The notes under the pieces were generated by a model. It had not been told where the DNA came from and searched no databases. It was given only the letters and a program-made list of their open reading frames with translations. Made by a program: the position numbers and the translations under genes. Positions 13,011 through 26,838 of a stretch of DNA of 32,000 nucleotides are shown one piece after another; positions within the stretch are counted from its first letter, which is position 1; the number at the start of each line of letters is the position of its first letter. The stretch lies in the NCBI GenBank assembly GCA_038858525.1, contig JAWCFL010000002.1, positions 89,987 through 121,986 of the forward strand, read 5' to 3'. Source of the stretch: Candidatus Jordarchaeales archaeon. Its GTDB lineage: Archaea > Asgardarchaeota > Jordiarchaeia > Jordiarchaeales > Freyrarchaeaceae.

Positions 13011-13173
13011 GCGGGGGTTGCCTAGTGGCTAGTTCCGGAGGAACCCATAAAAGGCGCTGGCCTGGAGTTTAAACCGCACCTGAAAGCCAGTGACCCGAAA
13101 AGGTGCATGACGCCGCGCGCCATCATGCGCTATCGGACGGGTCGCGTGGGTTCAAATCCCACCCCCCGCGCCA
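13011..13173 (+). tRNA. tRNA-Ser(GGA) with three introns: D-loop 13031-13050, canonical 37/38 13068-13084, variable arm 13101-13138
   Basis: Acceptor stem GCGGGGG/CCCCCGC, G73 and encoded CCA. Removing the three segments gives D-arm GCCU-AGUGGCUA-AGGC, anticodon arm CUGGC-CUGGAGA-GCCAG, variable arm GACCC-GAAA-GGGUC and T-arm GUGGG-UUCAAAU-CCCAC. Confidence 0.88.
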
Positions 13174-24903: not shown

Positions 24904-24912
24904 CATATAAAA
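24904..24912 (+). promoter_or_regulatory. TATA box of tRNA-Arg
   Basis: CATATAAAA about 30 nt upstream of the tRNA 5' end, in A-rich context. Confidence 0.55.
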
Positions 24913-24940: not shown

Positions 24941-25074
24941 GGTCCCGTCGCCTAGCCAGGAGAGAAAAACTGAGAGGGCGCCGACCAGTAGGCGTAAGCC
25001 TTCTAAGCCGGAGTTCCCGGGTTCAAGTGTTCCCGCCATCAGGGCCGGAACTGAAAATCCCGGCGGGACCGCCA
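24941..25074 (+). tRNA. tRNA-Arg(UCU) with three introns: D-loop ~24963-24974, anticodon stem 29/30 24984-24997, T-loop 59/60 25028-25057
   Basis: Acceptor stem GGUCCCG/CGGGACC, G73 and CCA. The spliced form has anticodon arm CCGGC-CUUCUAA-GCCGG and T-arm CCGGG-UUCAAGU-CCCGG. BHB motifs can be drawn for introns 2 and 3. Confidence 0.9.
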
Positions 25075-25094
25075 CAACTTCCTTTTAATAGCCA

Positions 25095-26718: not shown

Positions 26719-26838
26719 TGGAGCCCCGGGCGGGTGTTCCGCTGAAGACTCGAACCCGCGGCCTGCGGCTTACGAGGCCGCCGCTCTACCGGTTACCCGC
26801 CACTCCAGAAGAAAGAGGAAGCCCTGAGCTACCGGGGC
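26719..26838 (-). tRNA. tRNA-Thr(CGU) with two introns: D-arm 15/16 26823-26793, T-loop 59/60 26748-26736
   Basis: Reverse complement gives acceptor GCCCCGG/CCGGGGC, U73 and CCA, and anticodon arm GCGGC-CUCGUAA-GCCGC. Removing the introns gives D-arm GCUC-AGCCGGUA-GAGC and T-arm GCGGG-UUCGAGA-CCCGC. Confidence 0.9.

Follow-up and report, generated by a model that had tools for sequence, protein, structure and literature searches.

The window (the whole stretch of 32,000 nt that was analysed) contains at positions 24941-25074, plus strand, a 134-nt gene for tRNA-Arg(UCU) that is interrupted by three inserts (Table 1). The ends of the gene can be read directly: the acceptor strands GGUCCCG and CGGGACC are complementary, and a discriminator G and an encoded CCA close the 3' end. 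Neither ARAGORN nor Rfam calls a tRNA in the raw window, because the inserts interrupt the gene. When the three inserts are removed in silico, the 78-nt product is identified by ARAGORN as tRNA-Arg(tct), with a perfect cloverleaf and all stems intact. This product has a 7-bp acceptor stem, a 4-bp D-stem, a 5-bp anticodon stem and a 5-bp T-stem, together with a 7-nt anticodon loop with U33, G18 and G19 in the D-loop and the T-loop sequence UUC, and it has the features of a class I tRNA. A comparison that makes no use of splicing motifs, in which the gene was aligned to L012, an orthologue without introns from a different family of the phylum, returns insertions of 12, 14 and 30 nt that are the same three inserts. 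In-silico splicing and this alignment thus both bear out the initial annotation of the locus as a tRNA-Arg(UCU) gene with three introns. A weak Twister-P5 match in the raw window (E-value: 9.3) was dismissed as noise.

Table 1. Coordinates of the tRNA-Arg(UCU) gene and its flanking elements (window numbering; intron boundaries as predicted).
Feature	Length	Position	Strand	Description
TATA-box-like motif		24905-24912	+	ATATAAAA; seen in the sequence, approximately 30 nt upstream of the mature 5' end; probable archaeal promoter
Exon 1	22 nt	24941-24962	+	Acceptor 5' strand, U8 C9, D-stem 5' strand GCCU, D-loop AGCCAGGAG; positions 1 to 20a
Intron 1	12 nt	24963-24974	+	D-loop, site 20a/21; relaxed BHB; boundaries placed by the BHB rule
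Exon 2	9 nt	24975-24983	+	A21, D-stem 3' strand GGGC (22-25), G26, C27 C28 G29
Intron 2	14 nt	24984-24997	+	Anticodon stem, site 29/30; BHB core with 4/4 pairs
Exon 3	30 nt	24998-25027	+	G30 C31, anticodon loop CUUCUAA (anticodon UCU at 25002-25004), anticodon stem 3' strand, variable loop AGUUC, T-stem 5' strand, UUCAAG (54-59)
Intron 3	30 nt	25028-25057	+	T-loop, site 59/60; strict hBHBh'
Exon 4	17 nt	25058-25074	+	U60, T-stem 3' strand, acceptor 3' strand, discriminator G73, encoded CCA
T-rich trailer		25079-25086	+	TTCCTTTT; seen in the sequence; probable transcription stop

The TATA-like motif lies at an equal distance from the gene in two orthologues of the same genus. The junction of exons 1 and 2 in the spliced tRNA is predicted to read CCAGGAG followed by AGGGCGCC (also written CCAGGAG followed by AGGGCGCCG).

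The organism is Candidatus Jordarchaeum, a hot-spring Asgard archaeon, and belongs to a lineage of multi-intron tRNA genes. A 912-aa protein encoded near the gene shares 90% identity with a protein of Candidatus Jordarchaeum sp. LHC_1308, and its matches of 59-85% identity are from Jordarchaeia and Freyarchaeota genomes. In the whole genome (2.09 Mb), ARAGORN finds 5 plain tRNAs and the Rfam model RF00005 has 8 matches. A crude stem-based scan, which does not capture genes interrupted in the acceptor stem or in the early part of the T-loop, detects approximately 27 tRNA-like genes of 84-224 nt. Among the five tRNA-Arg genes, the number of inserts ranges from 1 to at least 5. Interrupted tRNA genes are the norm in this genome and make up nearly all of the set.

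Two other interrupted tRNA genes in the window are missed by both ARAGORN and Rfam. By hand reading, the gene at 13011-13169 (plus strand; D-loop and 37/38 inserts) is probably a tRNA-Ser(GGA) and the gene at 26723-26838 (minus strand; D-loop and T-loop inserts) is probably a tRNA-Thr(CGU). Elsewhere in the genome, the tRNA-Arg(CCU) gene (L135; G000 C5:44863-44946, minus strand) has a sole insert of 10 nt at 20a/21, with the core CAGG/UCUG and a 3-nt loop, and is miscalled as tRNA-Leu(gag) by ARAGORN.

BHB motifs of the three introns

Boundaries were assigned using the standard bulge-helix-bulge (BHB) geometry, in which each strand of a 4-bp core is followed on its 3' side by a bulge of 3 nt and cleavage occurs after the second nucleotide of the bulge. 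Intron 3 has the core UUCA/UGAA, the bulges AGU and AAU, the 5-bp T-stem as its outer helix and an inner helix of at least 5 bp, with a local motif energy of -21.0 kcal/mol (37 C). It is a strict BHB, as the initial annotation had claimed from the same core and bulges.

Intron 2 also has a BHB motif. The core GCGC/GCGU (24978-24981 and 24992-24995) forms all four pairs, the bulges are CGA and AAG, and the outer helix is 4 bp long (GAGG at 24974-24977 with CCUU at 24999-25002). The inner part is a loop closed by one C-G pair. This fold occupies bases 24974-24981 of the D-loop and D-stem, including the D-stem 3' strand at 24976-24979; the overlap of the GCGC/GCGU core with that strand, proposed earlier, is upheld by the geometry and has comparative support from one Freyarchaeia genome (G006, discussed below). 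Among the orthologues, 96.7% of the cells of the 29/30 motif are paired and two compensatory changes are present, one of them in the outer helix, which supports the fold. A competing register for this intron, preferred by ViennaRNA, was rejected (89% of cells paired, with zero compensatory changes or other covariation).

The motif of intron 1 is relaxed. Its core is CAG/CUG plus a G.A mismatch (3/4 pairs) and both bulges are AGA; the inner helix is absent and only one contiguous outer pair is present (C16-G22). If the D-stem is formed, the 3' bulge lies opposite A14-C16. The sequence GAGAG occurs twice, at 24960-24964 and 24972-24976, flanking the intron boundaries, such that six 12-nt segments (starting at 24960 to 24965) could be removed to yield an identical product; the core is present in only one of these six. 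The 3-bp core and the ambiguity introduced by the GA repeat had both been recognized from the start, and both hold. Random 12-mers placed at this site have at least 3/4 core pairs in 20% of trials, so the motif of intron 1 taken by itself lacks significance; it is the comparative data that are significant.

The 5' bulge of the D-loop intron begins with A20 (position 24961). In bacteria, A20 is a major identity element for arginyl-tRNA synthetase. Because of its place in the bulge, the unspliced precursor may be a poor substrate for charging.

Conservation and the case for excision

Orthologues of the tRNA-Arg(UCU) gene were matched in 11 related genomes besides that of the window, including an intronless one (L012), whose D-loop is equal in length to the predicted mature D-loop and differs from it at one base. 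All three introns occur at identical sites in the other three genomes of the genus and also in the sister genus. Five Freyarchaeia genomes share the D-loop and 29/30 introns and have a canonical 37/38 intron in place of the T-loop one, and a genome of another family (G016) has the D-loop intron only. An insert of 10-14 nt also fills this D-loop site in other isoacceptor genes: that for tRNA-Arg(CCU) in three genomes, and that for tRNA-Arg(GCG) in the present genome.

In total, 15 tRNA-Arg genes from five genera have an insert of 10-15 nt at this one D-loop site. The core has 4/4 pairs in 10 of the 15 homologous inserts, compared to 3/4 in the gene studied here. In an alignment of 14 of these genes (one row was left out as identical to another), 89% of the core cells are paired; when the D-stem is included, the whole D-loop structure is 94.6% paired, versus at most 51% in slid registers. 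Covariation in the core consists of one A-U to U-A swap, and the fourth pair is G.A, G-C or G.U. These comparative data support the identification of very short tRNA-Arg D-loop inserts as genuine introns that are predicted to be excised, and we infer that the 12-nt insert is excised from this tRNA-Arg(UCU) as well.

Metagenome and metatranscriptome contigs were scanned for the 22-nt sequence that would cover junctions 1 and 2 after splicing. All 22 matches are to long DNA contigs of other archaea, where the sequence lies uninterrupted in compact tRNA-Arg genes; the scan returned no match to RNA. The compact genes (L113-L134) have the anticodons UCG, CCG, GCG, UCU and CCU, and a few have a canonical intron only. 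Their D-arm and anticodon-stem 5' strand are identical to those of the predicted spliced product of the window gene.

Two features of the Freyarchaeia orthologues concern other parts of the molecule. Four of the five (L006, L007, L008 and L011) have the anticodon loop CCUCUAA, in which C33 replaces the near-universal U33, and the intron strand of their 37/38 core matches it (GAGG); the fifth (L009) retains U33 with GAAG. L009, from genome G005, also has a second, longer insert earlier in the D-loop besides the micro-intron, giving two D-loop introns in one gene.

The genome encodes proteins that may be suited to introns at non-canonical sites. It has two EndA paralogues (PF01974), in the regions C3:81835-82089 and C43:5978-6235 of G000. 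The first, an alpha-like protein of 191 aa, has the catalytic alpha subunit of Aeropyrum pernix as its best match (3p1z_B; E-value: 1.6e-48) and aligns without gaps over the Crenarchaea-specific specificity loop, with a Lys at the K44 position. Its Tyr, His and Lys residues are at the positions that we take to be those of the catalytic triad. The second paralogue (198 aa) lacks the His of the triad and would fit the role of a structural beta subunit. In A. pernix, the loop confers cleavage of D-loop and bulge-helix-loop substrates (PMC3241643).

A second tRNA-Arg(UCU) gene, for which the initial annotation had advised a check, was not found in the assembly (92.7% complete) by searches with the gene itself, a compact orthologue, D-arm and anticodon-loop patterns (the latter a scan on GC-rich context) or BLAST. 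Genes for tRNA-Arg CCU, UCG, CCG and GCG are present once each. When the three introns and the entire precursor were compared with the genome by BLAST, the sole match was to the gene itself. AGA had been described as very common in these genes, and it is common, at 19.4 per 1000 codons and 31.8% of Arg codons, but it comes second to AGG (40.8%). Decoding of AGA appears to depend on this single gene, and so all three cuts must work efficiently.

Two alternatives to this account concern what becomes of the transcript. The locus could be a decaying pseudogene, with AGA read by another tRNA: the incompleteness of the assembly and the failure of standard tools to detect the gene would both be compatible with this. 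It is nevertheless very improbable, given that the spliced form has no imperfect stem and retains the invariant bases, that the gene, the promoter-like box and all three introns are conserved in the genus and sister genus, and that no other UCU gene was found while the remaining four tRNA-Arg genes were, in a genome that uses AGA for nearly a third of its Arg codons. It is also possible that only the other two introns are spliced and that the 12 nt are retained, leaving the mature tRNA with a D-loop expanded to 22 nt that bears a small hairpin. The relaxed motif, which has 3/4 core pairs, lacks a proper outer helix and arises by chance at the 20% rate given above, would allow for this, and a 2026 preprint states that some D-arm insertions may be non-introns (bioRxiv 10.64898/2026.10.13.758758). 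Several lines of evidence make retention unlikely. Although insert length (10-15 nt) and loop sequence vary, the register of a 4-bp core and 3-nt bulges is constant at one site in 15 genes, and one core pair has undergone a compensatory swap. The 12-nt hairpin would sequester G18 and G19, which in a tRNA must contact the T-loop. Both the intronless relatives and the 22 metagenome genes have a 10-nt D-loop, exactly as predicted after excision, and A. pernix EndA cleaves a D-loop BHB intron in vitro (PMC3241643).

Overlapping folds and the order of splicing

The 29/30 motif and the D-loop motif make competing demands on the same exon bases. The stretch at 24974-24981 that enters the 29/30 motif includes both bases flanking the 3' cut of intron 1 (between 24974 and 24975). 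The motif also recruits C31-U34, which prevents formation of the anticodon stem. When intron 1 is presented, in the cloverleaf-like fold, intron 2 forms no more than a 14-nt bulge in the anticodon stem. As 24974 and 24975 are base-paired in the 29/30 fold, introns 1 and 2 cannot be cut in one conformer and at least two folds are needed. The mutual exclusion of these folds, put forward in the initial annotation, therefore stands as a matter of geometry (shared bases and a paired 3' cut site). Stepwise splicing would follow from this geometry alone.

A change in the complete Freyarchaeia genome G006 hints that both folds are under selection. In this orthologue, base 25 is U rather than C, and both of its partners are altered: G10 of the D-stem is replaced by A, and a G in the intron strand of the 29/30 core is replaced by A. 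This single event is as predicted if both alternative pairings of base 25 are needed; the orthologues are related, so the covariation rests on few events. The tRNA-Arg(GCG) gene of the Jordarchaeum genome (L136; G000 C4:38169-38340, plus strand) has at least 5 inserts, including a 14-nt D-loop intron and a 17-nt 29/30 intron. These are the two sites of the UCU gene, and the fold conflict thus recurs in a paralogue. Because these sites are common to several tRNA-Arg isoacceptors, introns may have spread, or gene conversion may have taken place, between the tRNA-Arg genes.

The order of cleavage is a separate matter. The GAGAG repeat restores the GAGG outer strand after removal of intron 1, so either order looks feasible; our preferred order (T-loop first, and 29/30 before D-loop) is a guess. 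ViennaRNA misfolds even the mature tRNA (no cloverleaf), which makes its thermodynamic numbers weak evidence either way: the explicit folds are nearly isoenergetic at 37 C (-43.6 versus -40.8 to -43.4 kcal/mol), the local motif energies at this temperature are -6.3 kcal/mol for the D-loop and -5.3 kcal/mol for 29/30, removal of the 29/30 intron increases the predicted D-loop core probability from 0.38 to 0.75, and the 29/30 core has a low probability (0.03 at 37 C and 0.15-0.27 at 70 C).

It may be that all three introns are spliced in no meaningful order, either because the folds interconvert faster than cleavage at the growth temperature or because EndA needs only the core and bulges, in which case the incompatibility would have no kinetic or regulatory consequence. 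We regard this as rather unlikely, though it deserves more weight than retention of the 12 nt. The local energies of the D-loop and 29/30 motifs are approximately 0 kcal/mol at 70 C and the two global folds are within 3 kcal/mol of one another, the repeat leaves the 29/30 outer-helix sequence unchanged by removal of intron 1 such that either order works, and an EndA of broad specificity cleaves relaxed bulge-helix-loop substrates (PMC3241643). Against this, pairing of the two bases at the 3' cut site in the 29/30 fold means that each molecule has to be bound at least twice, in different folds. The orthologues conserve the 29/30 outer helix and show one compensatory change in it, and ordered removal of three BHB introns has been observed experimentally in Cyanidioschyzon merolae (PMC3728597).

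The explanation that we favour for 24941-25074 as a whole, with a probability of roughly 0.8, is that it is a functional tRNA-Arg(UCU) gene with its own TATA-type promoter and three EndA-spliced introns, two of which need mutually exclusive folds. According to this model, a precursor of approximately 135 nt would be transcribed from the TATA-type promoter, and EndA (the alpha-like and beta-like paralogues) and an RNA ligase would have to excise the three introns. The T-loop intron, as a strict BHB that extends the T-stem, would be independent of the other two. The 29/30 intron would be presented only once exon bases 20a-27 (the end of the D-loop, the D-stem 3' strand, G26 and C27) have left their cloverleaf partners, and these freed bases would pair with the intron to form the core and with C31-U34 to form the outer helix. 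The D-loop intron would be presented as a minimal hairpin that locks G18 and G19 into a 3-4-bp core; its 5' site would lie within the loop and its 3' site opposite A14-C16, and bases 21-25 would have to be free or in the D-stem. The precursor would consequently pass through at least two folds.

A broader reading, which we offer tentatively, joins these observations. The 10-15-nt D-loop inserts may be a conserved family of minimal EndA introns at 20a/21, common to tRNA-Arg UCU, CCU and GCG in the order that contains Jordarchaeia and Freyarchaeia, and to UCU in one genome of another family of the phylum. They may be cut by way of a hairpin-type relaxed motif in which the 3' site is opposite a 3-nt stretch of the D-loop. 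Where the 29/30 intron is present, base 25 may be selected for two partners, and the pre-tRNA may be an evolved two-state molecule that refolds between splicing steps.

Comparison with known systems

Multiple BHB introns in one tRNA gene are known from other groups. In Thermoproteales, a single tRNA gene can contain as many as three introns, of BHB or relaxed-BHB type, which interrupt the D-arm, the anticodon stem and the T-loop and are cut by an (alpha-beta)2 EndA with a specificity loop (Sugahara et al. 2007, 2008; Fujishima et al. 2010; reviewed in PMC4033280 and PMC4090602). Thermoproteales belong to another phylum, and Jordarchaeum has a higher genome-wide intron load per gene and very short D-loop introns (10-15 nt).

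The A. pernix enzyme provides a biochemical precedent for intron 1. The D-loop BHB intron of pre-tRNA-Thr2(UGU) is cut in vitro by (alpha-beta)2 EndA in a reaction that depends on the loop and on Lys44 (Hirata et al. 2011, PMC3241643). This specificity loop aligns with the alpha subunit of Jordarchaeum, in which the Lys is conserved. The substrates differ: that of A. pernix is described as a BHB, whereas the 12-nt intron of Jordarchaeum has a 3-bp core and lacks a regular outer helix.

Ordered splicing is documented in pre-tRNA-Ile(UAU) of the red alga C. merolae, in which the D-arm, the anticodon arm and the T-arm are likewise each interrupted by a BHB intron. RT-PCR of intermediates showed an ordered removal that tracked BHB stability (Soma et al. 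2013, PMC3728597). C. merolae is a eukaryote, and its motifs "can fold independently" (PMC3728597); in the Jordarchaeum gene, two of the three predicted motifs share bases.

The closest comparison is with the lineage itself. Valentin-Alvarado et al. (2024, PMC11291895) report introns in 92-95% of the tRNA genes of Freyarchaeia and Atabeyarchaeia, with several introns in more than half. A census of 90 Asgard genomes (Goswami et al. 2026, bioRxiv 10.64898/2026.10.13.758758) gives 2.2 inserts per gene and up to five, in families that include Jordiarchaeaceae, and finds that annotation systematically overlooks inserts in the D-arm, which often have no canonical motif. The tRNA genes of Jordiarchaeaceae, Freyrarchaeaceae and Atabeyarchaeaceae match the present gene in lineage, in multiple short introns at non-canonical sites, in D-arm insertions that software misses and in two EndA paralogues. 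Heavily interrupted tRNA genes in this lineage are thus already known (PMC11291895; bioRxiv 10.64898/2026.10.13.758758), and the UCU gene is unexceptional among them.

Beyond the dependence of AGA decoding on it and two points raised by the 2026 Asgard tRNA intron census, the gene adds no new kind of element. It is a clean and well-conserved test substrate for those two points, namely whether very short D-arm insertions with relaxed motifs are truly spliced, and how an enzyme that reads shape handles two introns that require incompatible shapes. Both studies of the lineage provide genome-wide counts, and the parts covered do not describe the UCU gene, the D-loop site shared by tRNA-Arg genes or the conflict between the 29/30 intron and the D-stem (PMC11291895; bioRxiv 10.64898/2026.10.13.758758). 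In comparison, what is added here is a case of two introns that share exon bases, with covariation that gives a hint of selection on both folds.
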